Both the position numbers and the translations under genes were made by a program. A DNA stretch of 64,000 nt from Subdoligranulum sp. CAG:314. Its GTDB lineage: Bacteria > Bacillota > Clostridia > Christensenellales > CAG-314. The notes under the pieces are model-generated. The model did no database searches, was not told the DNA's origin, and worked only from the letters and a program-made list of their open reading frames with translations. Shown one piece after another: positions 5,901-45,595 of the stretch; positions within the stretch are counted from its first letter, which is position 1; the number at the start of each line of letters is the position of its first letter. Location: contig FR901000.1 of NCBI GenBank assembly GCA_000437915.1, positions 119,244-183,243 on the forward strand, read 5' to 3'.

Positions 5901-6406
5901 GCAGCGTGGACGGAGATTGGGGCGAAAGAGTTTTCGGCGCGCCGTATGTAGGAAAAGCGGACAGTCTCGGCGTTGTCACGCTGTATGCAAGATTCGGCGA
6001 GGACAGATACGAGGACGGTTCGGACGTGCCTTTCGCTTTCGTCGTATCCGAAACGACGAGAAAGCTGACCTTGAACGCTTGGACGACGACGTTCTTTGAG
6101 TTTACGCCCGAAAGGGACGGACTTTATCTCATGAAGATGAATTTCGACCACGTGGCTTACTCCGACTCCGGCTTCGGGACGTTCGACAAGGCTACAAACA
6201 CGGTAAACGGATTTTGGTACACGACGGTTTACGACGAAAATTGGAACGTTTTGTATCTCGGATTCGAGTGCAAGGCGGGACAAACGTATTACATCTTTTA
6301 CGAATTTTCGGAGCAGAACGTTTACACGGGCGAAATTGAAGTGCCTCTTGCGGAATATGAATTTACCGTCGAGTGGCAGGGAGAAATACCCGCACAGCAG
6401 GCGTGA
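2936..6406 (+). CDS. Large surface lipoprotein with Listeria-Bacteroides (Flg_new) repeats and BspA-type leucine-rich repeats
   Basis: 1156 aa. Signal peptide with lipobox (LAAAC-GK). GWS/GW..DGG...F.F...V......L.A.W repeats at the N-terminus and near the C-terminus. Long central I.IP..V..IG..AF LRR region. The C-terminal module is shared with the 6619 and 48652 paralogs. Confidence 0.8.
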   Translation: MKQRTLKLAALVFALLALVCLAAACGKVTHEVVFDADGGSAVVGITVADGQAIGNAPHSEKEGCKLKGWSADGGETLFDFSTPVTRPMTLKAVWENVASQTPQQPVTVTFEDDGKVIAQVTIEKGGKVFAPDYSKEGFELVWKNGGETFAFDTAIDSDLNLVAEFSPVMLSVTVQDADGLRLDEVEVAYGQAADIQLEPTHWAYPEIFTFSGWDKPVDCVKENMTVTAVYDYKSLPESLFYFNLLDDGTYEIAVKRTLDFRYMNLDGDWGVPATFNNKPVSKIASYGLSSLYKGFKDIDLLYIPESVKIVDAYAFDGLDIPRVDFAGLEQIWAMAFFNCAFELNLPASLCEIEPYAFFQFGLINRLNSQNDRSVNLSSDCESFFMSGLALYSSDGSELVYIDYLNRTSENAELVVPDTVKTVYPALLWQAWGIDSIVFEGDVETIGSGFLYSNSIQSVTFNGNVERIEGAEATYELKGAITRDHASQLKAGAFQQCSRLGYSADFTLPRGLKYIGDFAFFETELKEVRLDGVQYVGEGAFYCQYYDKFDTVVVTNSDKYYSYLDRALIEKGTGPLFNGKAGDTFVLYAPIVAEYNFNNDDFDPENAEQFLTETYTVPQGVTAFRPFAFNDVYDIKTLVIPEGVVSLPAGVVLSDSVFQVYDHGTFTEYYFGISQISLPSTLKEINSELNWENALANESYPALTLGENFTGFVWPNGCNLKKIEYYSIHTRQTEVELPATVTDYSASGYGNMYLENITVEEGNGRYLSFGGWLYEKIGGNELRLVHIPRASANADGKLIFPDTGEYILTEIASQAAYGIIPNYSEEGEVIFDGITEIEFPDTVRVICDLAFNGCSTIKSVTFPAGIEYIGTRAFAPALNIQSITFNGILPPKMGENVFSNPFGEPLANATIHIPNGTYACWSAFLAEYGKLYGINYFKALETPQSFTYNFESNGGTEVESVQSYDLWSLPYTEWAGEGERFFQGWFTKDGSVDGDWGERVFGAPYVGKADSLGVVTLYARFGEDRYEDGSDVPFAFVVSETTRKLTLNAWTTTFFEFTPERDGLYLMKMNFDHVAYSDSGFGTFDKATNTVNGFWYTTVYDENWNVLYLGFECKAGQTYYIFYEFSEQNVYTGEIEVPLAEYEFTVEWQGEIPAQQA

Positions 6407-6427
6407 CGGCAAAATTCTAATTGATTT

Positions 6428-6457
6428 AAAAAAGGAGTCTAAAAGACTCCTTTTTTT
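6428..6457 (+). terminator. Intrinsic terminator (copy 2 of the identical 30-nt hairpin)
   Basis: AAAAAAGGAGTCTAAAAGACTCCTTTTTTT, 22 nt after the stop codon. Confidence 0.8.
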
Positions 6458-6618: not shown

Positions 6619-9600
6619 TCAACTTTCGTTTATCACTACGTTTGCCGTAAAGGTGAAAGGAAACATCTCGGCGGGCAAATCGATTTCAAGCCAACCGAAA
6701 TAGGTGTGCCCCTCTTTGACCGTTCTGTTGCTCCTGCTCACCAGATTTTCCATGCTTTCGTCGGAGAACAGCATAACCCATACTCTGTACTCCGCGCCCG
6801 CGGCTTCCAGCTCGGCGGAGATAAGCGGCACGTCGTTTGCGTCGGATGCAAGCTTACCCGACGCGGAGGCGGTAAAGCGGAAGTAGTAAATCCCCGACTG
6901 CGAAACGGTAACGGTCTTTTGCTCGGAGAAATCCCAACCCGTTTCGACGCTCAGACCGTCCTGCTTGCGCTCGGTCTCCCAGCGGGCATACAGCGTGACG
7001 CCCGTCCCCTCGCCTTCGTACCAAAACGGGAAAGACGCTTCCTCGCCCCAGACGCCGCCGGACACCGTTCCGTCCGTCAGATACCAGCCCCAGAAGAAGT
7101 AACCGTCGCGGGCGGGCACGGGTCTTGTGAGCGCCGCAAAGCCGTTGACGGAAGCAATCTGACTGCCACCCTTGGAGTCGAACACAAAGTCGTACTTCGG
7201 TTGCTTGCTGTCGTCAAGCGCGGCGGCTATTTCCGGAGCGATGGCGTAAAGCGCGTCGAAATAGTTTCTGAATCTGCCTTCGGGGCAAACGATGGTCACG
7301 TCGGAATAGAACCGCGCGGGCACCCATTCGTCGGGGTTTTCGCTCTCGGGCTGATATTTGAACCAATTGTTCTCTCCGTAGTCATCGGCGACGGCGGGCA
7401 TTTCCCCGCTCAAAAATACGAGCTTTTCAAGCGCGGTATTGCCGAAAAACGCCGACACCCCTATGTTTGTCAAAGTCGCGGGCAAAGTGATTGTCTTCAA
7501 CGTCGCAATACTCGCAAAGCAGCTTGCCCCGACCGAAACGCAGGCGCTGTCGTCGGCAAAGGCAATGCTTGTGAGTTCCGCGTTGCGCAAAAACGCCACG
7601 TCCGCCACATATACCACGCTTGCCGGCACCGTGTAGGTCAAGCCCTGCTTTGCCGCAGGATACATCAAAAGAACCTGCTTGTTTTTGTCGAAGAGCACGC
7701 CGTCCTCGGAGGAAAGCGTAGGATGCCCTTCCGCCACGTTGAACTCTTGGAGACTCCAACAGTAGAAAAAGCAATTGTTTCCGAGTCTCATGTTTTCCCC
7801 TATGTCGAAGCTCGTAAGTTTGGTGCCTGAAAACATACTGTCGCCCACCTCCGTCAGGCCTTGGTAGTTTTCAAGAACGGTGAGCTTTTCGCAGGCGTAG
7901 ACGGCAGGGGAAGCGGACCATATTTCACCTCTCGCCCAAACGGGTATTCCGTCAAACTCGGGCAGACCGTCGGACAAAAGCCGTGTTATTTTTGAAGAAA
8001 GCGTTATTTTTTCGACATAAGAGCCATAAAAACAGCCTGCGGGCAGCTCGGTCACGTTGCTTGACGAAAAGTCAACCCACTTTACGTTTGCAAAGGCAAA
8101 GGCAAAGGGCACAACCTCCGAAACAGAGGCGGGCACGGCGTATTTTTCCTCGCCAACCCTCGCAAATTTTATCAGCCTGTCTCCGCCGTCGGCGGCGGCG
8201 CCTTTGGCAATCAACGCCTGTCCCACGTCAAAATAAGCGTTGCTTCCGCCGTCCCGCATAGTAATCACGGGCGTTTTTCCGGAGCCTATAAAATCGTCCG
8301 CAATTTTTTCCAGAGTGGAGGGAAGGCTAAGCGATTCAGGCTCACAAAAACCGCCGAACACCGCGGGACCGATGTATTTCACACCGTCGGGCAGAACGTA
8401 ATTCTCGGCTCCGCAGCTTTCAAACGCGCCGTAATACATGATTTGCTCTTTTTCAAGGGGTGTGAGCCAGGTGTAAAAGTCGTCATTAAATACGTCGGTA
8501 AAACCGAATATGTACTCTATGCTGCCGTTTAACGCGACTGAGTTAAGCTCGGGCGTGTTGTAAAAGGTTCCCACACCCAAAAACTCCAAATCGCAGTTGA
8601 TTGTTATGCTTTCAAGCAAGTTGTCGTCGCAGAAAAGCCCCGAGTGGAGATAGGTGATTTCCTCCCCTATCACGACGCTTGCTCCCAGCTTGGAGAAATT
8701 CGCCCAATAAAGTCTGTCGCCGCCAAGATTGCTTAGCCACTTGCCGTTGTCCTTCATCATGAAATGCCCGTTGCCCTCGGCGACTTGAAGGTTGCCAACG
8801 CCCAATTCGTAACAGCGGTAAAAGGTGTTTTCTCCGAAATAATTGAGAGAAGCGGGCAGGGTTACGTTTTTCAAAACGTATGCGCTTGCGATTGAAACGG
8901 CTTCCAGTCTTTCAAGCCCTTCCTCGATTTCCAGCGTCTCCATCTGACGGCACTGATATATGCCTATCGGGTTGACGGTGCGGTAGGTCGAGGGTATGTG
9001 CAGCTTTGTGAAGCTTTCGTACATTATTGCTTCGCACCCGATCGTCGTCACAGGCAGATTGTTGAAATAAGCAGGCAAAGCGACCTCGTCGGGAAGCTCG
9101 CCGACCACTCCCGTAAGGGTGTAGCCCTTTTTGTCCTCGTTCAGCTCAAAATCGAAAAGAGAAGGCTCCGTTTCGAGATAAGTGTAAACGGCGTTTAGCG
9201 TCATGTCCTCGGTCACGCACTCCAACTCGTCCTCGTAAACGTCCCAGCCGCTAAGCTCGTAGCACCAGCTGTAAGTGTGCGGAGCAACTGCGGGGCAGAT
9301 TACGTCGCTTCCGTAAGGCAAAACCTTTGTGTCAAAAGCATAGCCCGTGTCGTCCAAAAACTCCACCGAAACGGTCGCCGTCTCCCAGCGCGCCGAAAAG
9401 ACCACGTCCTTCAAGGGGCTCTCCGACACGTCGTAGACCGAGCCTGCGGCGTAAATTTCGCTGCCGTCGCTCCAACCGAGAAATCTGTAACCCACTCTCA
9501 GCGGCGCGGACGCGAGAGTTACGTCCCCGTCCTTGGTAAAATCCACCGTCGAGGGATTTTGACAGTCGGGATAATTGAGGTCGTAGCTCGCTTTGAAAAC

Positions 9601-9888
9601 CGTGCTTGCAAACTTTGCCCACAACGTCACGTCCTCCGTGATTTCCTTGTCGAAATCGAATTTTTCGCCCGTTCTTTGCTCGTTGTCGTACCAGCCTTCG
9701 ACATAAACGCCGTCGGCGCACTCGACGGCGGGAGGTATCGCCTTGCTCCCCTTTTTCACCGTCACGACATAACCGTCGCTTTCGCCTGCGTTGAAGGTGA
9801 CGCCGTACGTTTTGCCGCACGCGGCAAGGCAAGTCAAAACCAACGCGACGCAAAGCGCACAAAGCAACAACTTAAAAAGCTTTTTCAT
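6619..9888 (-). CDS. Large surface lipoprotein with Flg_new repeats and BspA-type LRRs (paralog)
   Basis: Start moved to the ATG at 9888 (MKKLFKLLLCALCVALVLTCLAAC-GK lipobox), preceded by a GGAGGA SD. Repeat and LRR architecture as in 2936-6406. Confidence 0.8.
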   Translation of the reverse strand: MKKLFKLLLCALCVALVLTCLAACGKTYGVTFNAGESDGYVVTVKKGSKAIPPAVECADGVYVEGWYDNEQRTGEKFDFDKEITEDVTLWAKFASTVFKASYDLNYPDCQNPSTVDFTKDGDVTLASAPLRVGYRFLGWSDGSEIYAAGSVYDVSESPLKDVVFSARWETATVSVEFLDDTGYAFDTKVLPYGSDVICPAVAPHTYSWCYELSGWDVYEDELECVTEDMTLNAVYTYLETEPSLFDFELNEDKKGYTLTGVVGELPDEVALPAYFNNLPVTTIGCEAIMYESFTKLHIPSTYRTVNPIGIYQCRQMETLEIEEGLERLEAVSIASAYVLKNVTLPASLNYFGENTFYRCYELGVGNLQVAEGNGHFMMKDNGKWLSNLGGDRLYWANFSKLGASVVIGEEITYLHSGLFCDDNLLESITINCDLEFLGVGTFYNTPELNSVALNGSIEYIFGFTDVFNDDFYTWLTPLEKEQIMYYGAFESCGAENYVLPDGVKYIGPAVFGGFCEPESLSLPSTLEKIADDFIGSGKTPVITMRDGGSNAYFDVGQALIAKGAAADGGDRLIKFARVGEEKYAVPASVSEVVPFAFAFANVKWVDFSSSNVTELPAGCFYGSYVEKITLSSKITRLLSDGLPEFDGIPVWARGEIWSASPAVYACEKLTVLENYQGLTEVGDSMFSGTKLTSFDIGENMRLGNNCFFYCWSLQEFNVAEGHPTLSSEDGVLFDKNKQVLLMYPAAKQGLTYTVPASVVYVADVAFLRNAELTSIAFADDSACVSVGASCFASIATLKTITLPATLTNIGVSAFFGNTALEKLVFLSGEMPAVADDYGENNWFKYQPESENPDEWVPARFYSDVTIVCPEGRFRNYFDALYAIAPEIAAALDDSKQPKYDFVFDSKGGSQIASVNGFAALTRPVPARDGYFFWGWYLTDGTVSGGVWGEEASFPFWYEGEGTGVTLYARWETERKQDGLSVETGWDFSEQKTVTVSQSGIYYFRFTASASGKLASDANDVPLISAELEAAGAEYRVWVMLFSDESMENLVSRSNRTVKEGHTYFGWLEIDLPAEMFPFTFTANVVINES

Positions 9889-10095
9889 ATTCTGTCCTCC
9901 GATAAAAATATTTTTTGCAAACAATTAGATTTTTCAGCCAACACGATTGGTCGAAATTATATTTGCAATTTAAAATTATCATACGGACAAATCTTTGTCA
10001 AGCGTTTTTACGCCGTTTTGTCGTAAAAATTTCTTTTTCTTGTTCAGTTGTTTTGGAAATCCGTTCTTTTTTAACTCCGATTCTTCTTGTCGCTG

Positions 10096-10365
10096 TCAAA
10101 AAACCTGTTTTCCTTTGGACGAGTCAAAACGCGCTTCGCTCTTCTTTTTGGCGCGCTCCTCCCCTTTGTCATAGCCCAGCAGATAATCCGTGCTTTCGTC
10201 AAACAGCGCGGCAATCCTGCACAGGTCGGTCAGAGACGGCTCCGCGCGGTTGGTCTCCCAGCTTGCGACCGACGCCCGCGTAATTTGCAAACGGTCGGCA
10301 AGTTCCTTTTGTGTCCACTCGTTTTCCTTTCTCAGCTCTTTGAGCTTGTCCGCAAATTTTCTCAT
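10096..10365 (-). CDS. XRE family helix-turn-helix transcriptional regulator
   Basis: MRKFADKLKELRKENEWTQKELADRLQITRASVASWETNRAEPSLTDLCRIAALF is a classic Cro/C1 HTH. The internal ATG at 10365 is preferred over the ORF-track start. No SD; CATAAT lies 6 nt upstream, so the mRNA may be leaderless. Confidence 0.7.
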   Translation of the reverse strand: MRKFADKLKELRKENEWTQKELADRLQITRASVASWETNRAEPSLTDLCRIAALFDESTDYLLGYDKGEERAKKKSEARFDSSKGKQVF

Positions 10366-10628
10366 ACGAGTATTATGTGTAGTTAATACACGAAAAAAAT
10401 GCGGTGTGCATAAATTACACAACTCAATTTTGCGCGGCGCTGCCTGCGGAGGGCATCGGAAAGCAATTTTTTACACGGAAAATTTACAAAAAGTCAAATT
10501 CCGCCATATTTCACGGCGCTGCCCGACGCATCTGCGACAATTTGATTTCAAACAAAAAAATACCGCCCGAAAACACGGTTTTATGTCGGCAATCCGTTTT
10601 TAAACGGCTCCCAAAAGGACAAAAGACG

Positions 10629-10661
10629 AAAAAAAAGGCGTGACCGAGTCACGCCTTTTTT
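10629..10661 (-). terminator. Intrinsic terminator after icd (bidirectional hairpin)
   Basis: A8-GGCGTGAC-CGA-GTCACGCC-T6. Confidence 0.75.
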
Positions 10662-10710
10662 GAGTTTAAATTTAATTGTTTTTCGCGCCGCCATGCTGCG
10701 CCCTTTTTCG

Positions 10711-11925
10711 TCAGGCAAGCAGCTTTTCCAGACGCGAGCGGATTTCTTTGAGGAAGGTTTCGCTGTTGACGGATTTTACCTTTACGCCCTCGTCCACAAG
10801 GTTGACGAGGTCCTTTGTCATAATGCCTTCCTCCAGAGTCTGTATGCAAGCCTTTTCCAGCTTTTCGCCGAACTCGACAAGCTTGGGCAGATTGTCCAGC
10901 TCGCCGCGCTTTTTGAATGCGCCCGTCCAAGCGAAAATGGTCGCCATGGGATTTGTGGAGGTTTCCTCCCCTTTGAGATACTTGTAGTAGTGACGCGTCA
11001 CGGTGCCGTGAGCCGCCTCATACTCGTATTTTCCGTCGGGGCTGACCAGAACGCTTGTCATCATGGCAAGAGAACCGAATGCCGTGCTTACCATATCGCT
11101 CATAACGTCGCCGTCGTAGTTTTTGCACGCCCAGATGTAGCCGCCCTCAGACCTGATAACGCGCGCCACCGCGTCGTCGATGAGAGTGTAAAAATACTCC
11201 AAGCCCATTTTTTCAAAGGTTTCTTTGTAATCGGCTTCGTAAATCTCCTCAAAAATCTGCTTGAACGCGCCGTCGTATTTTTTGCTTATGGTGTCCTTGG
11301 TGGAGAACCAGAGGTCCTGCTTTGTGTCTATCGCGTATCTGAAACAGCTGTGGGCAAAGGATTTGATTGACGTATCCTTGTTGTGCATTGCCTGAAATAC
11401 GCCGCCGCAATCCAGCTTCTGCACCTCTACCGACTCGGTTTTGCCCGACTGTCCCACAAAAGTAAGCGTCGCCGTGCCCGGCTCCGTCGTGCGCAGCTCC
11501 ACTCCCTTGTACACGTCGCCGTAAGCGTGACGCGCAATGGTAATGGGCTTTTTCCAATTTTTGACCACGGGCTTGATTGTGCTTATGGTTATGGGAGCGC
11601 GGAAAACCGTGCCGTCCAGCACCGAACGAATGGTTCCGTTGGGGCTTTTCCACATTTCTTTGAGGTTGTACTCGCTCATCCTCTGTTTGTTGGGGGTGAT
11701 TGTCGCGCATTTGACTGCCACGCCGTATTTTTTGTTGGCGTTGGCGGCGTCCCAGGTAATTTGGTCGTTGGTGCGGTCGCGCTCCACAAGCCCCAAATCG
11801 TAATATTCCGTTTTGAGGTCTACGAAAGGAAGAATAAGCTCGTCCTTTATCATTTTCCAGAGTATTCTTGTCATTTCGTCGCCGTCCATTTCCACCAACG
11901 GCGTAGTCATCTTGATTTTTTCCAT
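10711..11925 (-). CDS. icd: NADP-dependent isocitrate dehydrogenase, eukaryotic-like (type II) form
   Basis: MEKIKMTTPLVEMDGDEMTRILW...KCATITPN...ARHAYGD motifs. The ATG at 11925 has an AGGAGA SD and removes the overlap with the upstream gene. Confidence 0.9.
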   Translation of the reverse strand: MEKIKMTTPLVEMDGDEMTRILWKMIKDELILPFVDLKTEYYDLGLVERDRTNDQITWDAANANKKYGVAVKCATITPNKQRMSEYNLKEMWKSPNGTIRSVLDGTVFRAPITISTIKPVVKNWKKPITIARHAYGDVYKGVELRTTEPGTATLTFVGQSGKTESVEVQKLDCGGVFQAMHNKDTSIKSFAHSCFRYAIDTKQDLWFSTKDTISKKYDGAFKQIFEEIYEADYKETFEKMGLEYFYTLIDDAVARVIRSEGGYIWACKNYDGDVMSDMVSTAFGSLAMMTSVLVSPDGKYEYEAAHGTVTRHYYKYLKGEETSTNPMATIFAWTGAFKKRGELDNLPKLVEFGEKLEKACIQTLEEGIMTKDLVNLVDEGVKVKSVNSETFLKEIRSRLEKLLA

Positions 11926-36848: not shown

Positions 36849-39800
36849 TTACACTGCCGCGTACTCCACTTCAAGCAGGGAAAGCGCTTTGTTCAGTTTC
36901 AATCGGTTGCACACTATTCTTTCGTCCACAATCAGCCAATTGCCCCTTTCTCCGTTGTGTGCGGGCTGAGCCAAAAGCAGACTCAGATATATCAGCAGTC
37001 TGTCCGTATTTTCTATGCCGGCAAGCTCTATCGCATTCTGTTCGGAATCGGAAAAAACAAGCTCGTTTTCAAAGCTTACGCCAAGACGCCCCTCCGACAT
37101 GATTTTCAACAGCGAATCCGCATACGCAACCACGCTTTTGACCTTGTCGTAAATGATTGCCGAAGCAACCTTAGTTTCGTTGAACGCCTCCGTCAGACCG
37201 CCGAGTATTTCCGCCTCGTTGGCAGCCTGCGCCAGACTGACTTTCAGCGCGCCCGTATTGACGAACACATTTAGCTCGTAGTCCAGCTTTTCTTCAAGCT
37301 CCGCCGCTTTGGCGTCGAGATTGGCAAGCCGTCTTTCGAGATGCGCCGCCCTTTCCGCCGCGCGGGGAATCTCTTTTTCTCGGGGCAGAAGCTCAAGCGC
37401 GCGCTTTTCAGTATCCGTCCTTTCGGTGAGTTTTTCAAACAGATAATCGAAATTTTTTACGCCTCTGCGCGTCGCCTCTATATCCTCGTCGGAAAGGTCG
37501 GCTATCGCGCGTATCCACTCCTCGTTTCTGTCGGAGCTTTTGAGCATTTCCGACAGAGAACGCCTGCTTTCTTCCAGAGCCTTTTCCTTCACGTCGCAAT
37601 CTATTTCGAGACAGCGCAGCTCTACGCGCTTGTCGAACACCTGACGGCTGAGATTTTCCTTGCTGTCGAAAAGCATATTGCGCTCGCTCTCCACCTCCTC
37701 CAGCTCTCCCTCAAGCTCGGCAAGCCTTTCCTCTGTTTCGCCGCCGGCAAATTCCTCCGCCTTTTCGCCCGCAGCCACGATTTCTCTTTCGTTGGCGCGT
37801 ATTTTTTGCAGCGTCTCTATGATAAGCTCCTGAATCCTCAGACGCTTGTTGTCAAGCTGGTCTATGGTGTCGAGAATTGTTTTGTGCTGTTTGTAGGACA
37901 GCGACAGCCTGTCTCCTATGTCCGCAAGCTCGTGCTTGATTTGCTCGTTGGTCTGCATAATCACTTCCAGCCCGCCCTCGTCGGAAACGCTCCTGCGGTT
38001 GTCCGAAAGATAATTTAGGCGGGTCGTAAGCTCGGTCAGTCTGCCTTTCTTCTGTTCCAAATCGCGCTTCAAGGCTCTCAGCTCGGTCTCGTTTTTTACC
38101 ACGTCCTCCTGAATACCCAGCAGATATCTCGTCGCGCCGTTTGTTTCCAGAGATTTCAGATATTGCTGTGTGGACTCCGCCTGATTCTGCGCCACAAGCT
38201 CCAAATATTTTCTGTTTATATTGCTTTTTTCCTGCCGCAGGGACTCTATTTCGGCGTTGTTTACGGCTATATGCCGCGAAATTTCCCCCATCGCGCCTTT
38301 GAGCATAGCCGACGCGCGCATTGCCTCCTGCCTGTCCATAGTCCTGTTTGCCAGGTCGCTTTTGAGCCGCTCTATTTCAGGGTCGTCAAGCTGCGCGGGC
38401 AGCGCGGACATGACGGAAATATTGTCCGGCTCCTCTCGTCCCGCCAGCAACACCTGCCGCTTGAACTCCTCCTCCTTGGCAAACTGCTTTCTCACAAGAA
38501 CGGTGGAAATGGACTCGCTCGATTGTTCAAGCCGCATTTCCTGAAAGCCGTTGTCCTCCAAGGCACGGCGGAAATTGTTGAGTTTTTCTTTAAGAGAGTC
38601 GTTTATAAGCGTCAGCTTGTCTATTTTCGCGTCGATAACGCTTACTATCGCGTCCTTTGCCTTCAACGGCGCTACCGTGCTGTCAAGCGCCATAAGGCTG
38701 TTCAGCTGCTTGGTCTGTCCCGAAATGGTCAGCTCCTTGTCCGCTATGTCGCTTTCCCTCGCCGCAATTTCGGTTTGAAGTCTGTCCGTCTGCGCGCGGA
38801 TTTCGGTAATCTTGACCTCGGCGCGCACGTTTTCCATCAGTTCCCCTATGCTCTGCTCGGGAATATTGAAAGACTCCATACTCTGTCTTATTTCGGCTAT
38901 CGACTGCTCCACGTCGGCAAGATTGTTTTTGAGGTTTACCTTTTTGGTTTCCAGCCTGTCAAGCTGCACGTTGAGCTTGCCCATGCTTTCGGTAAGCTCG
39001 TTGTTGCGCCTTTTCAGCTCCTCCGCCTTTTTCTGTTCGTCAATGGCGATTTCCATACGGGACTTTTTGGCGATAAGGGAATCCGCCTGCGCCTGCTTGG
39101 ACACAAGCTGCTCCGTTATCGAAGCAAATTCGCCGTCCTGCCAATCTATTTCGCCTTTTAACGCTTGCCTTTTTTCTTTGAGAGCTTCAAGCGCCTGCTT
39201 CTCCGCGTCCAGACGGCGCATTCTTGCGACAAGCTCACAAGCCTCGTCGTATGCCGCAAGCTGTCCCCTTTTCAAATCTATGTAGTCCTTGTTTTCAAGC
39301 AGCTTTTCAAGCTTGGCGCTGTCGGAGGCGTATTCGGCGGCAAGAGCTCCCGCCGCTTTTTGACCGAACATATTGCGTTTAAGCTTTTCAAGCTCGGACG
39401 CCCTTTCCTCCCGCTCGGCAAGGTTTGCCTTGACGGCGGCGAACAGCTTTTCTATATTTTCCTTTGCGGAAAAGGGAATGTCCGCGTCAGCCATGCGCCT
39501 TGCGCGTTCCAAAGCCTGCCCGTGGCGTTCCTTCAAACCCGCAAAAACCTTTTCCCCCTCGTCGGCCGCCCTCAAAAGCCCGTCAAGGTCGGCAAAGCTC
39601 CTTGCGGAACCCTTTTTTACAAATTCCTTAAATCCGTCGGCGGAGGCAAAGCAATTTTGCGCAAGCTCCCGCAAGTCGCAGCCTGCAAGCCTGAAAAGCT
39701 CCTCGTTGACGCGCTTTTCGCGCGCTACGACCTCCGTCTTGCCGTCGCAGTCTTTTTCTTTCAGCGCGCGGCGGGTGACGCCCTCGGCGTTTGTAGTCGC

Positions 39801-40010
39801 GCTCAAAACGTACCGTTTGCCTTTAAGCTCAAACTCCACCCACACGTCCTTAGCCGTTTCGTTCTCATCGCCCAACGCTCTGAGCAAACCGTCGTAAAGC
39901 TCGTTGGAGCCTTTTTTGAGTATATCGCGCGACGAAGCCGCGCGTTGAAAATCGAACACGCTTTTTTCCTTTTGACCTCTTGGCGCAAGGGCGATACCGT
40001 ATATTTTCAT
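36849..40010 (-). CDS. Rad50/SbcC/SMC-like long coiled-coil protein with a degenerate ATPase head
   Basis: 1053 aa from MKIYGIAL (GGAGGA SD). About 850 aa of heptad-rich E/K/L/R sequence. C-terminal Walker-B-like WLIVDE. No G....GK[ST] P-loop anywhere and no LSGG signature. Confidence 0.6.
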   Translation of the reverse strand: MKIYGIALAPRGQKEKSVFDFQRAASSRDILKKGSNELYDGLLRALGDENETAKDVWVEFELKGKRYVLSATTNAEGVTRRALKEKDCDGKTEVVAREKRVNEELFRLAGCDLRELAQNCFASADGFKEFVKKGSARSFADLDGLLRAADEGEKVFAGLKERHGQALERARRMADADIPFSAKENIEKLFAAVKANLAEREERASELEKLKRNMFGQKAAGALAAEYASDSAKLEKLLENKDYIDLKRGQLAAYDEACELVARMRRLDAEKQALEALKEKRQALKGEIDWQDGEFASITEQLVSKQAQADSLIAKKSRMEIAIDEQKKAEELKRRNNELTESMGKLNVQLDRLETKKVNLKNNLADVEQSIAEIRQSMESFNIPEQSIGELMENVRAEVKITEIRAQTDRLQTEIAARESDIADKELTISGQTKQLNSLMALDSTVAPLKAKDAIVSVIDAKIDKLTLINDSLKEKLNNFRRALEDNGFQEMRLEQSSESISTVLVRKQFAKEEEFKRQVLLAGREEPDNISVMSALPAQLDDPEIERLKSDLANRTMDRQEAMRASAMLKGAMGEISRHIAVNNAEIESLRQEKSNINRKYLELVAQNQAESTQQYLKSLETNGATRYLLGIQEDVVKNETELRALKRDLEQKKGRLTELTTRLNYLSDNRRSVSDEGGLEVIMQTNEQIKHELADIGDRLSLSYKQHKTILDTIDQLDNKRLRIQELIIETLQKIRANEREIVAAGEKAEEFAGGETEERLAELEGELEEVESERNMLFDSKENLSRQVFDKRVELRCLEIDCDVKEKALEESRRSLSEMLKSSDRNEEWIRAIADLSDEDIEATRRGVKNFDYLFEKLTERTDTEKRALELLPREKEIPRAAERAAHLERRLANLDAKAAELEEKLDYELNVFVNTGALKVSLAQAANEAEILGGLTEAFNETKVASAIIYDKVKSVVAYADSLLKIMSEGRLGVSFENELVFSDSEQNAIELAGIENTDRLLIYLSLLLAQPAHNGERGNWLIVDERIVCNRLKLNKALSLLEVEYAAV

Positions 40011-40217
40011 GCTTTCCTCCGAGGGGAACACAAACTGCGTTCTGAATTTATTATAATTTTATTGCTGAACTGTTTGAATTTTTACAAATGTGTGCTAAAA
40101 TCTTCTTTACGGAAAAAAAGCTCCGCTTAAAGCAACGTTTTTCTTTTGTTTATTATACCACAGCTGAAAAATAAATCAAGCGGAATTTTCCATTTGACTA
40201 TTAAGAGGTAATTGCTT

Positions 40218-41663
40218 ATGCCCTTGTGCAGCGCTTCCGCCGAGCTTGTCAACTCCGGCTACACCGTTGTGGACAACGCCTTCATCGCCGAATATATGCC
40301 GCAAAGTCCTTCGGGCTGCGCGGAAATTTATCTTTTCGGACTTTATCTGTGTTCGCAGCCCAACAAGCAACACAACACTATGGAGGTCATGTGCCGCGCG
40401 TTGGGGCTAAAGGAGGAGGACGTCATAAACGGCTTCGCCTATTGGGAAGAAATGGGACTTGTGCACGTCGTGCAAAAGGAACCGATAGAGGTCGTTTACC
40501 TTTCGCAGAAAACCTCCCACGCGCTGCTGAAAAAAATCAAGGCGGGAAAATACTCCTCCTTCAACAAGCAGATTCAGGACGTAATTTCCGGTCGCATGAT
40601 AACGGTGCAGGAATACAACGAGTATTATATGTTTCTCGAAACCGCCTTTTTCCAACCCGAAGCGTTGGTGGCGGTGGCAAAGCACTGCGCCGAGCTTAAA
40701 GGAAACGACATAGGCTACAATTATATTCTTACGGTTGCGCGCAATCTTGCGACGGCGGGCTACACCTCCGCAGCCGCCGTCGAGGAAAAGCTCGCCAACC
40801 ACCCCAAATTCAACGAGGAACTGTCCCTTGTTTTCAAGGCGATGGGTTTAAGGCGCAAAATCGAATTCGAGGACAGACGCGCCTATGAAAAATGGACAAG
40901 CGATTTCGGCTTTTCTCCCGACATAGTTCTCAAAATTGCAAAACGCTTCAAAAAAGGCGAAATACGCAAGCTGGACGCCGCCCTGTCGCAATATTTCAAG
41001 CTCAATCTTCTGTCCGAGAGAGAAATAGAAAGCTTTGAAAGCTCCAAGCAGGAGCTTTTGGAGCTTACGCGGGAAATAAACCGCATAATAGGATACTACC
41101 ATCCCTCTTTGGAGCTTGTCGCGGAGGAATACGTGACGCCCTGGACGCAAAAGGGCTACGACGGCGAGACCTTGAAGCTCATCGCAAGATATTGCTTCCG
41201 TCGGCGCATACAGACTTTGGAGGGCATGAACTACACGGTAGACAAGTTTTTCAAACTCGGGCTTTTGGACGCCGACGCGATAAATCAATACATAGAACGT
41301 CTATTGCGCTACGACGAAAACATAAGAAAGCTTCTCGACAACATGGGAGTGCTGCGCACGGTTACGGCTGCGGACAGAAAGAATTACGCGCTGTGGATTG
41401 AGGATTGGCAGATGTCTCCGGAAACTGTCGAATATGCCTCCACCCTCTGCTCGGGCGCGCTGAATCCCATGTCTTATCTAAACAAAATTCTTTCCGATTT
41501 CAAGCAGAGGGGCGCCACCACGCCTGAAAAGGCCAAAGCCTTATCCCTTTCCCCAAAAACGCAAATGCAGGAAAAAAAGGCGCGCCCGACGGGCACCGAA
41601 AGGAATTATACGGCGGAGCAGCTCGCAGCGCTGTTCGACAATCTCGACGAAATAAAAATTTGA
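40218..41663 (+). CDS. DnaD-domain replication initiation / membrane attachment protein (B. subtilis DnaB-like)
   Basis: About 481 aa. The N-terminus (VVDNAFIAEYMP.....EIYLFGLY) and repeated DnaB_2/DnaD-like C-terminal modules are typical of this family. Immediately followed by a DnaI-like loader. Confidence 0.7.
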   Translation: MPLCSASAELVNSGYTVVDNAFIAEYMPQSPSGCAEIYLFGLYLCSQPNKQHNTMEVMCRALGLKEEDVINGFAYWEEMGLVHVVQKEPIEVVYLSQKTSHALLKKIKAGKYSSFNKQIQDVISGRMITVQEYNEYYMFLETAFFQPEALVAVAKHCAELKGNDIGYNYILTVARNLATAGYTSAAAVEEKLANHPKFNEELSLVFKAMGLRRKIEFEDRRAYEKWTSDFGFSPDIVLKIAKRFKKGEIRKLDAALSQYFKLNLLSEREIESFESSKQELLELTREINRIIGYYHPSLELVAEEYVTPWTQKGYDGETLKLIARYCFRRRIQTLEGMNYTVDKFFKLGLLDADAINQYIERLLRYDENIRKLLDNMGVLRTVTAADRKNYALWIEDWQMSPETVEYASTLCSGALNPMSYLNKILSDFKQRGATTPEKAKALSLSPKTQMQEKKARPTGTERNYTAEQLAALFDNLDEIKI

Positions 41664-41667
41664 AAAT

Positions 41668-42606
41668 ATGGACAAAATTCGGCTTGACAAAACAATAAAA
41701 GATATGCTTGCGCAAAGACGGCAGAAAGCGGAGCTTGACGCATTGAGCTACCGCGATTTTGTCATGAGCAACGCCGACTACGCCGCGCTGGACAGGCTTT
41801 TGAGGGAAAAAGAACTCGAAGAAATGAAGCTGAGCTTTTCGGGCAAAAGCGCCCCTCCCTCTTTAAAAGCCGAGCTAAAACGACTGCGCGGGCAAAAAAG
41901 CGCGCTTGAAAAAGAGCTTGGAATAAACGCGGAGAGACTTCTTCCCCGATATTTCTGCTCCAAATGCTCGGATACGGGAAGATACGAAGGAAAAATCTGC
42001 GAATGCGCAATCAGGCTCAGGGAGGAGCTGCTTTACTCGGACAGTTCCTTTGTGTGCAAAGGGCAGCAATTTTCCCTTTCGACCGAGACCGATGAGGAAA
42101 ACAACAAAGCCATCGAAATCTGCCGCAGGTTTGCCGATGCTTACCCCTCGACGCAAATCTTGAACATAATTATTTTCGGCGCGGTGGCAACGGGAAAGAC
42201 CTTTCTTGCGGGCAGTATCTGCAACCGCCTCGCAGAGCGCGGCTTGTCCTTTTGTGCGCTCACCGCATTCGGGCTTGCGAGAGAATTTCTGAACGAACAC
42301 ACATCCCCCGCCGCGCAGAGAACGGGTTTGTCGGAGCTGACGGACGCGCCTCTGCTTGTCATAGACGATTTGGGCAGCGAGCCCTTTTACAACAACGTTT
42401 CGCGAGAATATCTTTTTGCGCTGCTCGACGAGCGCGCGGTCGGGAAAAGAGGTACCATCGTCACCACCAATCTTTCGCTTGCCGAGCTGTGCGAAAGATA
42501 CGGCGAAAGAGTCTTTTCGAGGCTGGCGGACAAATCCAAAGGAATCTTTATCAATCTGAAAGGCTCGGACAAAAGACTCAACAACAAACAAGGCGGTCGG
42601 CAATGA
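41668..42606 (+). CDS. DnaC/DnaI-like helicase loader ATPase
   Basis: 312 aa. Cys cluster CSKCSDTG...CEC. Walker A GAVATGKT. Walker B LLVIDDLGSE. Confidence 0.8.
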   Translation: MDKIRLDKTIKDMLAQRRQKAELDALSYRDFVMSNADYAALDRLLREKELEEMKLSFSGKSAPPSLKAELKRLRGQKSALEKELGINAERLLPRYFCSKCSDTGRYEGKICECAIRLREELLYSDSSFVCKGQQFSLSTETDEENNKAIEICRRFADAYPSTQILNIIIFGAVATGKTFLAGSICNRLAERGLSFCALTAFGLAREFLNEHTSPAAQRTGLSELTDAPLLVIDDLGSEPFYNNVSREYLFALLDERAVGKRGTIVTTNLSLAELCERYGERVFSRLADKSKGIFINLKGSDKRLNNKQGGRQ

Positions 42607-43352
42607 AAAATTTTATCGATATCACCCACAAAAACCTTGCAGTAAAGCTTGCGGAAACGCGCGAGGAAATAGAAAAAGCGCGCGTTCTGCGATTCGACGA
42701 GCTGATAAACAAAAGCAATCCGGACATACCTTATTCCCAATGCTTTGACGACAGCGACTTTATTTACGACCACCTTATCGTAACCGACAGGGACAACGGT
42801 TCGGTAGTGGGCACCTACCGTTTGGGCAGGCGCGAGCAGCTTGAAAAAATAGGAGATTTTTACACCAACGTCAAATTCAACGTGGACAGCCTTATGGCTG
42901 CCGAGGGCGAGGTGCTCGAGCTGAGCCGCATGGCGATTAGGGAAAGCTACCGCGACGGCTCGGTCATCAAACTGCTGTGGAAGGGACTGTTCGCCTACTG
43001 TGCGAGGTTTGACGTGAAATGGCTTTTCGGCATCATATCCCTGCCGACAACGGAGCCTGACGACGCGCTTAATTTTTTGTCGTACATAAACAACGGCTTG
43101 CTGACGGAAGAATTCGATTTGTTCGCAAGAGAGCCGGTAGTAAGGACAAAGCTGCTGTCTGCCGACGAAATCGACGTATTCAAGGCAAAAAAAGAAATGC
43201 ACCCCATACTCAAAGCGTACCTGTCGATGGGCTGCAAATTTGCGCGCGGCGCGCACTACGACCTGGGCTTTTTGAAGAGCATAGACGTAATGATTGTCAT
43301 AGACTTCAAAAAAGTCAATCCGAAATATATAGAACTTGTCACCCGAATGTGA
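42603..43352 (+). CDS. GNAT-fold N-acyl amino acid synthase (OlsB / hemolysin-like N-acyltransferase family)
   Basis: 249 aa from the ATG at 42603 (ATGA overlap with the dnaI-like stop). Family hallmarks are RF.....K.......D.FD..hDHLhV.D....VVGTYRL, ELSRMAI...YR and LKAYLSMG. Confidence 0.7.
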   Translation: MKNFIDITHKNLAVKLAETREEIEKARVLRFDELINKSNPDIPYSQCFDDSDFIYDHLIVTDRDNGSVVGTYRLGRREQLEKIGDFYTNVKFNVDSLMAAEGEVLELSRMAIRESYRDGSVIKLLWKGLFAYCARFDVKWLFGIISLPTTEPDDALNFLSYINNGLLTEEFDLFAREPVVRTKLLSADEIDVFKAKKEMHPILKAYLSMGCKFARGAHYDLGFLKSIDVMIVIDFKKVNPKYIELVTRM

Positions 43353-43365
43353 CCGAAGGCAGAAT

Positions 43366-44598
43366 ATGAAACAGCGCACACCTCCCGACAGACAACCGGC
43401 AATTTTGCCGCGCCCCTTTGCGTTGAACTTTTTCAGAAACGCAATCAGATTTTTTTATATCAACCCTCGCGTAAAAAGAAAGCTTGACTGCGACAGGAAA
43501 AAACTTCCGCCGCAGTTCGTTCTTTTGTGCAACCACCCTTCAGGGCTGGACAACCTCTACGCGGTGGATTGGCTGCTGCCCGAGCACAAGCTGAATTTTA
43601 TTTCCAACCGCTATTATTTTTTCAAAACGGCGCTCGGCAGAATGCTCAGAAAGGTGGGCTGCATACCCAAGAGCCTTTTTACGGGCGATATAGAATCGGT
43701 CAAAAACTGTCTGCGCATAGCAAAAGCGGGCGGGAACATAGGTATCATGGCGGACGTAAGGCTGTCGATGTACGGACAGACGGAGGATGTGCCCGACACC
43801 ACCGCAAGATTTTTAAAAAAGCTTGGACTGCCCGTTGTGGTCATGCACTTTGACGGCAGCTATATGACCAAACCCAAATGGGCAAAGGACATACGCAAGG
43901 GTATGATTCTTGCAAAATGCTACGAGCTTTTCGACAGCGCTTCACTTGCCGCCGCCACCGACGAAGAAGTGACCTCGAAGATGAGAGAAGCCCTTTACTA
44001 CGACGACTTCGAGTGGATAAAAAAGCACCCCGAAATCACCTTCAAATCCAAAAAAATTGCGGAGGGGTTGGAAAACATACTTTACAAATGTCCGCACTGC
44101 GGCAAAGAATTTTGTTTAAAGAGCAAAAAGGACAGATTTTTCTGCACCTCGTGCGGATACGAGGTAAGGCTTAATCCGCGCTACGCTTTCCTGCCGCAGA
44201 GAGGCTTTCCTCTTTATTTTGAAAACCTCAGAGATTGGTTCAAGGCGCAGAAAGCGGAAATCGCCCTTGCAATAACCGATTCCGATTTTTGCCTATCCTC
44301 TCCCGTTCTGCTAAAAAAGCGCAGCAAGGACGGCAAAACATTTTTGCGCGAGGCGGGACGCGGCACGTGCACGCTTTCTCACGGAGGGCTTGTCTACGAG
44401 GGAAGCGCGGACGGCGAAAACCTTCGGTTGGAATTCAAGCCGTCGGAGCTTTACGCGCTCAGCTACTTGACGGGCAAGGGCTTTCAGCATTTTTCGGGTA
44501 CGGATTATTTTTGTTTCATGCCCGACGAGCCGCTGCTTTCAATCAAATTTTACATAGCCGCCGAGCTGTTGGGCAAAATGCACGGCGCAAAGGGCTGA
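43366..44598 (+). CDS. Lysophospholipid (PlsC/OlsA-like) acyltransferase with a C-terminal zinc-ribbon-containing extension
   Basis: HX4D motif (NHPSGLD). Zinc ribbon CPHCG....CTSCG. 13 nt downstream of the N-acyl synthase gene. Confidence 0.65.
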   Translation: MKQRTPPDRQPAILPRPFALNFFRNAIRFFYINPRVKRKLDCDRKKLPPQFVLLCNHPSGLDNLYAVDWLLPEHKLNFISNRYYFFKTALGRMLRKVGCIPKSLFTGDIESVKNCLRIAKAGGNIGIMADVRLSMYGQTEDVPDTTARFLKKLGLPVVVMHFDGSYMTKPKWAKDIRKGMILAKCYELFDSASLAAATDEEVTSKMREALYYDDFEWIKKHPEITFKSKKIAEGLENILYKCPHCGKEFCLKSKKDRFFCTSCGYEVRLNPRYAFLPQRGFPLYFENLRDWFKAQKAEIALAITDSDFCLSSPVLLKKRSKDGKTFLREAGRGTCTLSHGGLVYEGSADGENLRLEFKPSELYALSYLTGKGFQHFSGTDYFCFMPDEPLLSIKFYIAAELLGKMHGAKG

Positions 44599-44670
44599 CG
44601 GGAAACTCCCCGACGTTCCGCCAAACCCGTCGCGGGCGCAATTTAATTCCTCAAAAAGACAAAACAAAAA

Positions 44671-44693
44671 GACGGCTTTTAGCCGTCTTTTTT
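44671..44693. terminator. Bidirectional terminator between convergent genes
   Basis: A-run, GACGGCT-TTT-AGCCGTC, then T6. Confidence 0.7.
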
Positions 44694-45595
44694 CAGCTGT
44701 TGAACTCCTGCTCCGGCACGGAAAGCTTTATCGGTCTTTCCTTCGCCACGAAAATCACGCCCAAGGTACCCGGACCGCAGTGTGAAGCGATGACGGGTCC
44801 CACAATCTGCCGCTTGACCTCGGCTTCGGGACGCCCCTCTTTGATAAGTCGGGCAAGCAAATCGCCGTCCTCCCCGCAATCGGCGTCAACCACATAGACC
44901 TCGTATTTGTCAAGCTCCACTCCGTCCTCCACGACGCGGCGGGCAAGGTTTCTGATTGTTCTTTTGCGGCCGCGCACCTTGTAGACGACGGAAAGTCCTC
45001 CCTCCTCGTTGAAGGTCAAAACGGGCTTTATGCCGAGAATAGTCCCGAAAATACCGCTTGTCAGACTGAGTCTGCCACCCTTGTGCAGATACATCAGGTC
45101 GTCGCAGGCAAAATATGTGGCAACCCGATTGGTAAACTCGTTGAGAAACTTAAACAGCTCCCCGTCGCTAGCGCCCGTGCGCCACAGCTCGGCGGCGTAT
45201 TTGACTTGAAGTCCCGCGCCGAGAGAAATTTCCTTGGTGTTGAAAACGGTAAATTTTCTGTCGGGAAACTCCTCTTTGAGCTTTTTTACCGCCGCGTCGA
45301 GACTCTGAAAGGTTCCCGACAGGGCGTGCGAAAAGGTAATGTAAAAAATATCCTCGCCCTTTTCAAAATAAGGGCGGAAAATCTCGTCGTACATTTCGGG
45401 ATTGAGGGCGGAAGTGATACATTTCGCGCCGTTTCTGACGGATTTGTACCATAAATCAAAATCGGTATTTTTCCCCAAATCGTAAAAATACTCCGTGTCC
45501 TCGAGAGTATACGGCATACTGATAAATTTCAGTCCCAGCCTTTCCACCTCGTCGAACCACAGCTCGCAGTTGGAATCGCAAAACAACACACTCAT
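44693..45595 (-). CDS. DegV family fatty-acid-binding protein
   Basis: 300 aa. DegV-type pattern (..DS...L.......G.....P......Y.D; TS.LNP..Y; ISLGAG). GGAGGT SD. Confidence 0.85.
   Translation of the reverse strand: MSVLFCDSNCELWFDEVERLGLKFISMPYTLEDTEYFYDLGKNTDFDLWYKSVRNGAKCITSALNPEMYDEIFRPYFEKGEDIFYITFSHALSGTFQSLDAAVKKLKEEFPDRKFTVFNTKEISLGAGLQVKYAAELWRTGASDGELFKFLNEFTNRVATYFACDDLMYLHKGGRLSLTSGIFGTILGIKPVLTFNEEGGLSVVYKVRGRKRTIRNLARRVVEDGVELDKYEVYVVDADCGEDGDLLARLIKEGRPEAEVKRQIVGPVIASHCGPGTLGVIFVAKERPIKLSVPEQEFNS

Follow-up and report, generated by a model that had tools for sequence, protein, structure and literature searches.

Why does a gene pair for an N-acyltransferase and a lipid acyltransferase lie directly behind the replication initiation genes of a gut bacterium, and what would the pair make? 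The question is raised by a stretch of 64,000 nucleotides of Subdoligranulum sp. CAG:314 (contig FR901000.1, positions 119,244 to 183,243), referred to here as the window. Four open reading frames lie head to tail on its + strand, encoding a DnaB_2-type replication initiation protein, a DnaI-type helicase loader, an OlsB/FeeM-like N-acyltransferase (NAS) and an HX4D acyltransferase with a zinc ribbon (AT) (Table 1). An initial annotation, made from the letters alone, had described the last two as an N-acyl synthase and acyltransferase pair fused into a replication operon. We analyzed the window with its genome (G000; 1.51 Mb, 95%-complete, 24 contigs) and with samples of 82 genomes of the host family, 301 genomes across the order and 400 genomes across the phylum; L-numbers denote loci and G-numbers genomes. 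The host family comprises 82 species with genomes of 1.0-2.4 Mb, mostly 1.1-1.8 Mb. The evidence, drawn from sequence comparison and structural models, tilts modestly towards a NAS-AT cassette that would build a two-tailed N-acyl amino-acid (or amino-alcohol) lipid and be co-transcribed with dnaB_2-dnaI.

The placement of the first enzyme in the OlsB-like family of N-acyl synthases held up. NAS scored 74 bits against PF13444, about three times the gathering cut-off of 22.4, and 26 bits against PF21926 (FeeM), just below the cut-off of 27. Its AlphaFold model (pLDDT 93.6) has a GNAT fold, and a Foldseek search with this model listed FeeM (2G0B) second (E 6.6e-6) and LasI (1RO5) eighth among the top structural matches. 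A NAS profile run against PDB sequences gave no match at E <= 1, and the link to FeeM and LasI comes from the fold search alone, in which general GNATs score about like FeeM. The motifs VVGTYRL and ELSRMAI..YRDG are both present. Residues E22, R30, D52, G70, Y72, R73, E106 and R109 are invariant across distant homologues (25-87% identity) and may correspond to the FeeM/LuxI catalytic positions. FeeM and LuxI-type synthases of acyl homoserine lactones (such as 1RO5) share the GNAT-derived fold with NAS, and these known enzymes use acyl carrier protein (ACP)-bound chains; however, their identity to NAS is 9-14%, and NAS has a C-terminal extension of ~80 residues that is seen in OlsB-length proteins. 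With the NCBIfam OlsB equivalog models NF052555 and NF052554, whose cut-offs are 320 and 350, NAS reached 129.9 and 126 bits. Judged by these profiles and the model, NAS is an N-acyltransferase of the OlsB/FeeM type that belongs to PF13444 without being an OlsB equivalog.

Scores so far under the OlsB equivalog cut-offs, the lack of a solved structure matched at the sequence level, and comparable fold-search scores for general GNATs and FeeM would also fit an enzyme that is not a lipid synthase. Such a NAS would acylate a protein or another small molecule ('hemolysin-like', or as in LuxI-like signal synthesis), and the role of the pair would be unrelated. We consider this very improbable, given the PF13444 score at three times the cut-off together with the FeeM match, and given that the characterized members of PF13444 all transfer fatty acyl chains to the nitrogen of amino acids or amines (PMC11631085, PMC12971839). 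The partner AT is, moreover, a lipid acyltransferase, and DegV genes recur beside NAS.

A phylogenetic placement among PF13444 sequences, which the initial annotation had proposed, set NAS apart from the proteobacterial enzymes. In a tree of 57 sequences NAS fell into a Bacillota/Mycoplasmatota clade (SH-like approximate likelihood ratio test, SH-aLRT, 97), and the OlsB-like sequences of alpha-, beta- and gammaproteobacteria lay outside it. A broadened NAS profile retrieved about 250 clusters; those nearest to NAS make up this same clade, and almost all are unnamed metagenome proteins. A characterized close relative, such as the Gemella nas, was sought with this profile and was not recovered; the matches were metagenome proteins without names and entries with generic 'GNAT family' names, and the head group used by NAS therefore cannot be transferred by homology. 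Among the 301 genomes sampled across the order, NAS occurs in seven, all in the host family, where it is found in 20 of the 82 species and 6 of the 18 genera. It falls there into three subclades: that of the window, mostly AT-linked, a DegV-adjacent one and a stand-alone one.

The description of such a pair as unusual in a Firmicute stands in part. Against it are the Bacillota/Mycoplasmatota clade itself and the Gemella haemolysans nas, which makes N-acyl serinols and is an active PF13444 enzyme of a Firmicute (PMC13012048). A 2026 review likewise lists OlsB homologues in a few Bacillales and Eubacteriales (Bacillota), with no aminolipid described there.

For the second gene, an HX4D acyltransferase with a zinc ribbon had been predicted, and both elements were found. 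AT scored 20.3 bits against PF01553 (22.9-23.1 in the genome frame; cut-off 23), its relatives reach 36-50 bits, and no NCBIfam acyltransferase model matched it. A profile of the AT family found Thermotoga maritima PlsC (5KYM) in the PDB (E 1.2e-6), and the AlphaFold model of AT (pLDDT 91.4, pTM 0.88) led to the same structure in Foldseek (E 2e-6, TM(target) 0.64), followed by PatA and GPAT. Across residues 45-205, AT has in common with 5KYM the HX4D motif (N56, H57 and D62 do not vary among 29 homologues), the conserved arginine in each of motifs II and III and the motif IV proline, and both proteins have an N-terminal amphipathic helix for membrane association. AT has no transmembrane segment, a pI of 9.3 and a moment of 1.34 in the N-terminal helix. 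Identity to 5KYM is about 16%, AT has 200 extra residues, and its motif III reads MADVRLS in place of (F)PEGTR, with the arginine retained. In its relatives this motif is PEVRLS (NAS-linked members of genus g4), PEARLS (long forms) or, in a few distant members, PEGxR. Motif III of PlsC binds the glycerol-phosphate acceptor. The altered ADVRLS of AT thus fits an acceptor other than a glycerolipid.

The C-terminal half of AT is covered by no Pfam or NCBIfam model. It contains the ribbon CPHC...CTSC, which keeps C242, P243, C245, C260 and C263 unchanged throughout 29 family members and weakly matched RPB12, S27ae and further zinc ribbons. The ribbon is followed by a domain that the initial annotation had overlooked, a PH-like fold matched by Foldseek to PH/EVH1 domains (ASAP1 5C6R, ARAP3 7YIR) with a probability of 0.99-1.0 and TM(target) of 0.5-0.69. 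The combination of PlsC fold, zinc ribbon and PH-like domain is an unstudied type of acyltransferase. Members of this family occur in all 82 host-family genomes (1-5 copies each, usually 2-5), and full-length members in 27 of the 400 genomes of the phylum-wide sample, or about 7% of the Bacillota sampled. The long-form relatives carry an N-terminal VTT/DedA or other membrane domain. G000 itself has a long-form paralogue (contig 23, L090 724-2565 +) and an ordinary PlsC of 202 residues. By these comparisons AT is not an OlsA orthologue, as a pair like OlsB/OlsA would require, but a paralogue recruited from a lineage-specific Bacillota acyltransferase family, which is present in every host-family genome with or without NAS and is probably a main lipid-remodelling enzyme family of these bacteria.

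That the two genes belong together had also been proposed, and they do stay adjacent and move together to other sites. NAS and AT adjoin with gaps of 0-20 nt in the window and at L001, L008, L094 and L096. At L001 and L008 NAS is 75-87% identical to that of the window, and in a gut metagenome-assembled genome ('uncultured Subdoligranulum sp. UMGS1403') it is 87% identical and the gene order is the same. Adjacency also holds at four loci fetched from genus g4 (L106-L109), which, with L094 and L096, have NAS at 36-43% and AT at 40-48% identity. The four-gene order dnaB_2-dnaI-NAS-AT recurs in two genera and in metagenomic relatives whose NAS is no more than 36-44% identical, which argues that the arrangement is not due to chance. 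A sister lineage (53-62% identity) carries the pair behind fba (L004, L147) or behind a carbonic anhydrase gene (L148). The NAS-linked clade of AT is confined to eight genomes of genera g1 and g4, and NAS lies within about 50 nt of it in all eight. In G354 a distant member of the AT family stands divergent, 320 bp from another NAS, and genus g2 shows an association of the third, stand-alone NAS subclade with the long-form AT paralogue that scores highest (6/9 versus 5/38; Fisher p = 0.0026, not corrected for kinship). As far as the comparative data show, NAS and AT are a functional unit, with AT as the adjacent, co-inherited O-acyltransferase known from pathways of the OlsB/OlsA type.

These patterns also bear on another possibility, namely that NAS alone makes a single-chain N-acyl amide, a signal or surfactant like the products of the human-microbiome NAS enzymes (hm-NAS), and that AT acts on some other membrane lipid, perhaps attaching scavenged fatty acids again to lysophospholipids or glycolipids; the two genes would then be neighbours only because both enzymes handle acyl-ACP. 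NAS genes do usually stand alone, both across the wider Bacillota clade and within two of the host family's three subclades, every host-family genome has the AT family whether NAS is present or not, AT is retained without NAS at L097, and the characterized Firmicute nas, from Gemella, yields a single-chain N-acyl serinol (PMC13012048). Nevertheless, the pair has changed its genomic site at least three times without coming apart or losing its short gaps, a specific AT clade is found only beside NAS, a second, independent NAS-AT adjacency exists in G354, and motif III of AT is altered as expected for an acceptor other than glycerophosphate. We therefore regard a single-chain product as possible but rather unlikely.

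The two-tailed lipid that we favour would need acyl chains, and the window genome restricts their source. Our searches of G000 found neither FabZ/FabA, nor FabF (the only PF00109 match being a thiolase), nor FabD, nor the acetyl-CoA carboxylase (ACC) carboxyltransferase, which for a 95%-complete genome of 24 contigs is not proof of their absence; FabZ is also missing from 58 of 58 good host-family genomes. One ACP, PlsX, a FakA-like kinase and five DegV/FakB genes are present. The Fak/PlsX system of Firmicutes makes acyl-ACP from imported fatty acids. Taken with the genes of type II fatty-acid synthesis (FASII) that were not found, this set points to a fatty-acid scavenger that would not make 3-hydroxyacyl-ACP de novo, and the whole host family looks like obligate scavengers by gene content. 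DegV genes adjoin NAS in two separate subclades, in the window and, for another subclade, at L005, L110 and L112, which fits a supply of scavenged chains. That the convergent neighbour of AT in the window is a DegV/FakB protein had escaped the initial annotation.

One possible source of 3-hydroxyacyl-ACP in G000, a pair of FabH-like (3-ketoacyl-ACP synthase III) and short-chain dehydrogenase/reductase (SDR) genes on contig 23 that might carry out one round of elongation, was considered and rejected. The FabH-like gene (L149 4307-5332 (+), equal to G000 contig 23, about 43806-44831) has an in-frame TAG at L149 4571, and FabD and ACC were not found. It lies behind genes for the beta and alpha subunits of electron-transfer flavoprotein (ETF-beta, ETF-alpha), a thiolase and the SDR, and the one other species of the genus has an equally short open frame; the TAG may reflect a pseudogene, an assembly error or read-through.

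The mechanism that we propose runs as follows. NAS, a soluble GNAT enzyme, would transfer a long acyl chain from acyl-ACP to the amino group of an amino acid or related amine, as its family membership suggests. AT would then add a second chain through an ester bond, as its pairing with NAS and its HX4D/PlsC fold suggest, held at the membrane surface as a peripheral protein by the amphipathic N-terminal helix and perhaps also by the PH-like domain. Both chains would be scavenged, FakA with DegV/FakB yielding acyl-phosphate and PlsX converting this to acyl-ACP, and the DegV protein encoded next to AT is a likely supplier of the fatty acid. Since 3-hydroxyacyl-ACP would not be made, the esterified hydroxyl would more probably belong to the head group (serine, threonine and serinol each offer one) or to a hydroxy fatty acid taken up from outside, and less probably to a 3-hydroxyacyl chain of the cell's own making. 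The location behind dnaI may be an inherited operon arrangement that provides housekeeping-level expression, with no mechanistic requirement.

How far the locus resembles described aminolipid systems can be judged from several of these. OlsB/OlsA, GluB/OlsA and GlsB/GlsA are two-step pathways in which formation of the amide bond is followed by addition of a second acyl chain (PMC11631085, PMC12971839). As in the OlsB/OlsA loci of Sinorhizobium, Brucella and Rhodobacter, the PF13444 gene of the window lies directly beside a gene for a PlsC-type HX4D acyltransferase. In classical OlsB/OlsA synthesis, N-acylation draws on 3-hydroxyacyl-ACP, and the hydroxyl so introduced is then esterified. The locus differs in its gene order, with the N-acyltransferase gene first, in the separate clade of its NAS and its scores below the OlsB cut-offs, in a partner that has a zinc ribbon and a PH-like domain and is not of the OlsA/GlsA type, and in a monoderm host without FASII in which the 3-hydroxyacyl-ACP donor would not be available. 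The N-acyloxyacyl chemistry put forward in the initial annotation is therefore doubtful, because it needs this donor; no supply of it was found in the genome, imported hydroxy fatty acids being the other possible source. The linkage chemistry is thus predicted to differ from that of ornithine lipids.

The comparison with gut enzymes fared better. PF13444 members of the human microbiome make N-acyl amides that act on G-protein-coupled receptors, as had been claimed, and some hm-NAS genes with a neighbouring acyltransferase yield N-acyloxyacyl products (PMC11271093, PMC13012048). NAS shares with hm-NAS the Pfam family and the gut/oral habitat, whereas the architecture of the partner acyltransferase differs, and no characterized hm-NAS was among the homologues of NAS that we recovered. 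With both chains drawn from host, dietary or neighbour fatty acids, the products could add to the gut's pool of N-acyl amides with activity on host receptors. The locus offers a concrete candidate, of two genes, for aminolipid synthesis in a human-gut Bacillota lineage. The existence of OlsB homologues in Bacillota was already known; what is new here is the recruited AT architecture, a scavenging background in which the standard donor would be lacking, and a position in the helicase loader operon that has been conserved.

Several findings weigh against a two-step lipid pathway. Besides the scores below the OlsB equivalog cut-offs and the incomplete genome behind the result on the FASII genes, most NAS genes in the wider Bacillota clade stand alone, like the genes of single-chain N-acyl amide synthases such as the Gemella nas. 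AT occurs without an adjacent NAS at L097, and NAS of the window's own subclade without an adjacent AT at L111 and L113. The AT family is found in all 82 genomes, 62 of which have no NAS, and its ancestral role would therefore be independent of NAS. Finally, the acceptor hydroxyl in the second step is a guess.

The packing of the pair with the replication genes was confirmed in every detail claimed for it, including the coordinates, the ATGA overlap at 42603, the 13-nt gap and the motifs VVGTYRL, ELSRMAI and NHPSGLD. The three junctions measure 4 nt, a 4-nt overlap in which the loader's TGA stop shares letters with the ATG of NAS (42603-42606, ggcaATGAaaa), and 13 nt between the NAS stop and the AT start (ccgaaggcagaat, including a GAAGG Shine-Dalgarno sequence); they are as tight at L094 and L096. 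A terminator scan of the + strand found no terminator-like site within 40212-44598, and its sole hit on that strand lies behind AT. From this gene packing and the terminator we infer that dnaB_2-dnaI-NAS-AT is one co-transcribed unit. Expression of NAS and AT may be constitutive, as the initial annotation concluded; in sister lineages the pair works outside the replication operon. The loader is an AAA+ protein of the IstB/DnaC/DnaI type, with partial matches to the NCBIfam models PRK06835, DnaC and DnaI, a Walker A motif GAVATGKT and a Walker B motif LLVIDD. G000, at 95% completeness, has no second dnaB_2 gene, and a block of an SMC-like gene, dnaB_2 and dnaI is stable in most family genomes examined (L107, L135, L136, L138, L141; SMC-like protein 29-77% identical), which marks these as chromosomal loader genes and not genes of a mobile element. 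An origin of the dnaB_2/dnaI pair from a prophage or IS21 was accordingly rejected, there being a single copy, no adjacent transposase and an SMC-like neighbour kept across the family. A recent horizontal arrival of the NAS-AT pair was rejected as well, since its GC content, overall and at third codon positions, matches that of the neighbours and the NAS tree follows the Bacillota clade.

Conserved placement behind loader genes suggests a further possibility, that the N-acyl lipid, or AT itself through its PH-like domain and zinc ribbon, is tied to replication initiation by attaching or modulating initiation proteins (DnaB_2/DnaI, and DnaA in another lineage) at the membrane. In its favour is the order dnaB_2-dnaI-NAS-AT kept across two genera and metagenomic relatives, as described above. 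Members of another NAS subclade, the third, are found 15 to about 80 nt downstream of the only true dnaA of G324 and G337, and in G344 the distance to dnaA is 1.7 kb; these three species of a sister genus give a second, independent tie of the NAS family to a replication-initiation gene. The chance of at least two of about 14 independent NAS contexts falling by initiation loci is roughly 8e-4 to 2.6e-2; this estimate varies with the definition of the class, is post hoc and counts two events only. In G226, a species without NAS, a long-form AT of 568 residues lies convergent and directly after dnaI (L136 5883-7589 (-); dnaI 4915-5811 (+)). Bacillus subtilis transcribes ytxB, one of six DedA/VTT paralogues, with its loader genes in dnaB-dnaI-ytxB-ytxC-thrS, an operon that likewise combines loader genes with a membrane- or lipid-related gene (PMC8208703; bioRxiv 10.1101/2022.02.03.479048). 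The genes downstream of dnaI in the window encode lipid acyltransferases and not DedA, however, the sole link being the N-terminal VTT/DedA domain in long-form relatives of AT. A replication function of ytxB is not known.

Against such a tie, the closest sister lineage has the pair behind fba or a carbonic anhydrase gene, so that the linkage to replication is old but not obligatory; 62 of the 82 family species replicate without any NAS; and the NAS-negative genomes examined have unrelated genes downstream of the SMC-like/dnaB_2/dnaI block. More simply, a place behind dnaI, dnaA, fba or the carbonic anhydrase gene would in each case give steady housekeeping expression. We accordingly hold a role in replication initiation to be improbable; were it true, it would be a monoderm counterpart of the link between acidic phospholipids and DnaA, and possibly a clue to the DedA gene in the B. 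subtilis dnaB-dnaI operon.

Table 1. Positions of the genes, domains and signals discussed. Numbers refer to the window unless a locus is named.
Feature	Position	Strand	Details
Promoter-like site TTGAAT-16-TAAAAT with extended -10 TG	40074-40101	+	divergent intergenic region upstream of the DnaB_2 gene; 9/12 positions in consensus scan, weak
DnaB_2/DnaD-domain replication initiation protein (B. subtilis DnaB type)	40212-41663	+	483 aa; PF07261 79.5 bits, TIGR01446
DnaI/DnaC-type AAA+ helicase loader	41668-42606	+	312 aa; PF01695 51 bits
NAS, OlsB/FeeM-like N-acyltransferase	42603-43352	+	249 aa, soluble; PF13444
AT, HX4D acyltransferase with zinc ribbon	43366-44598	+	410 aa
AT N-terminal domain, residues 1-210	43366-43995	+	amphipathic helix (17-32) and PlsC fold
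AT HX4D motif NHPSGLD (N56-D62)	43531-43551	+	motif I
AT Cys4 zinc ribbon CPHC...CTSC, residues about 238-266	44077-44163	+	
AT C-terminal PH-like domain, residues about 305-405	44278-44580	+	seven strands and C-terminal helix (model)
Bidirectional intrinsic terminator between AT and convergent DegV genes	44666-44692	.	12-bp stem AAAAAGACGGCT/AGCCGTCTTTTT; T runs on both strands
DegV/FakB-type fatty-acid-binding protein	44693-45595	-	convergent neighbour; PF02645 199 bits, TIGR00762 213 bits
dnaA / NAS beside it	L120 5589-6953 / 6968-7729		gaps at L120 and L121 from 15 to about 80 nt
dnaA / NAS beside it	L121 5562-6923 / 7001-7729		
NAS / dnaA, divergent	L114 7013-7720 / 9470-10831	- / +	1.7 kb apart

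Some minor observations concern the surroundings of these genes. The divergent neighbour of dnaB_2 in the window (36849-40031 (-)) encodes an SMC/Rad50-like coiled-coil protein of 1060 residues. On two metagenome contigs an AT 63-68% identical to that of the window (L097 6001-7230, L148 5764-6990) is followed by a small TSCPD-domain gene, and L097 is the one of the two that has lost the adjacent NAS. The B. subtilis DedA gene ytxB occupies the place that corresponds to the long-form AT after dnaI at L136. In G000, dnaA and dnaN are divergent and do not form one operon (L140, contig 24, 322000-331000; dnaA 3639-4997 (-), dnaN 5341-6444 (+)), and dnaA is followed by a TilS-like PP-loop gene (L140 2277-3611, -) in the downstream slot that NAS fills in other species.

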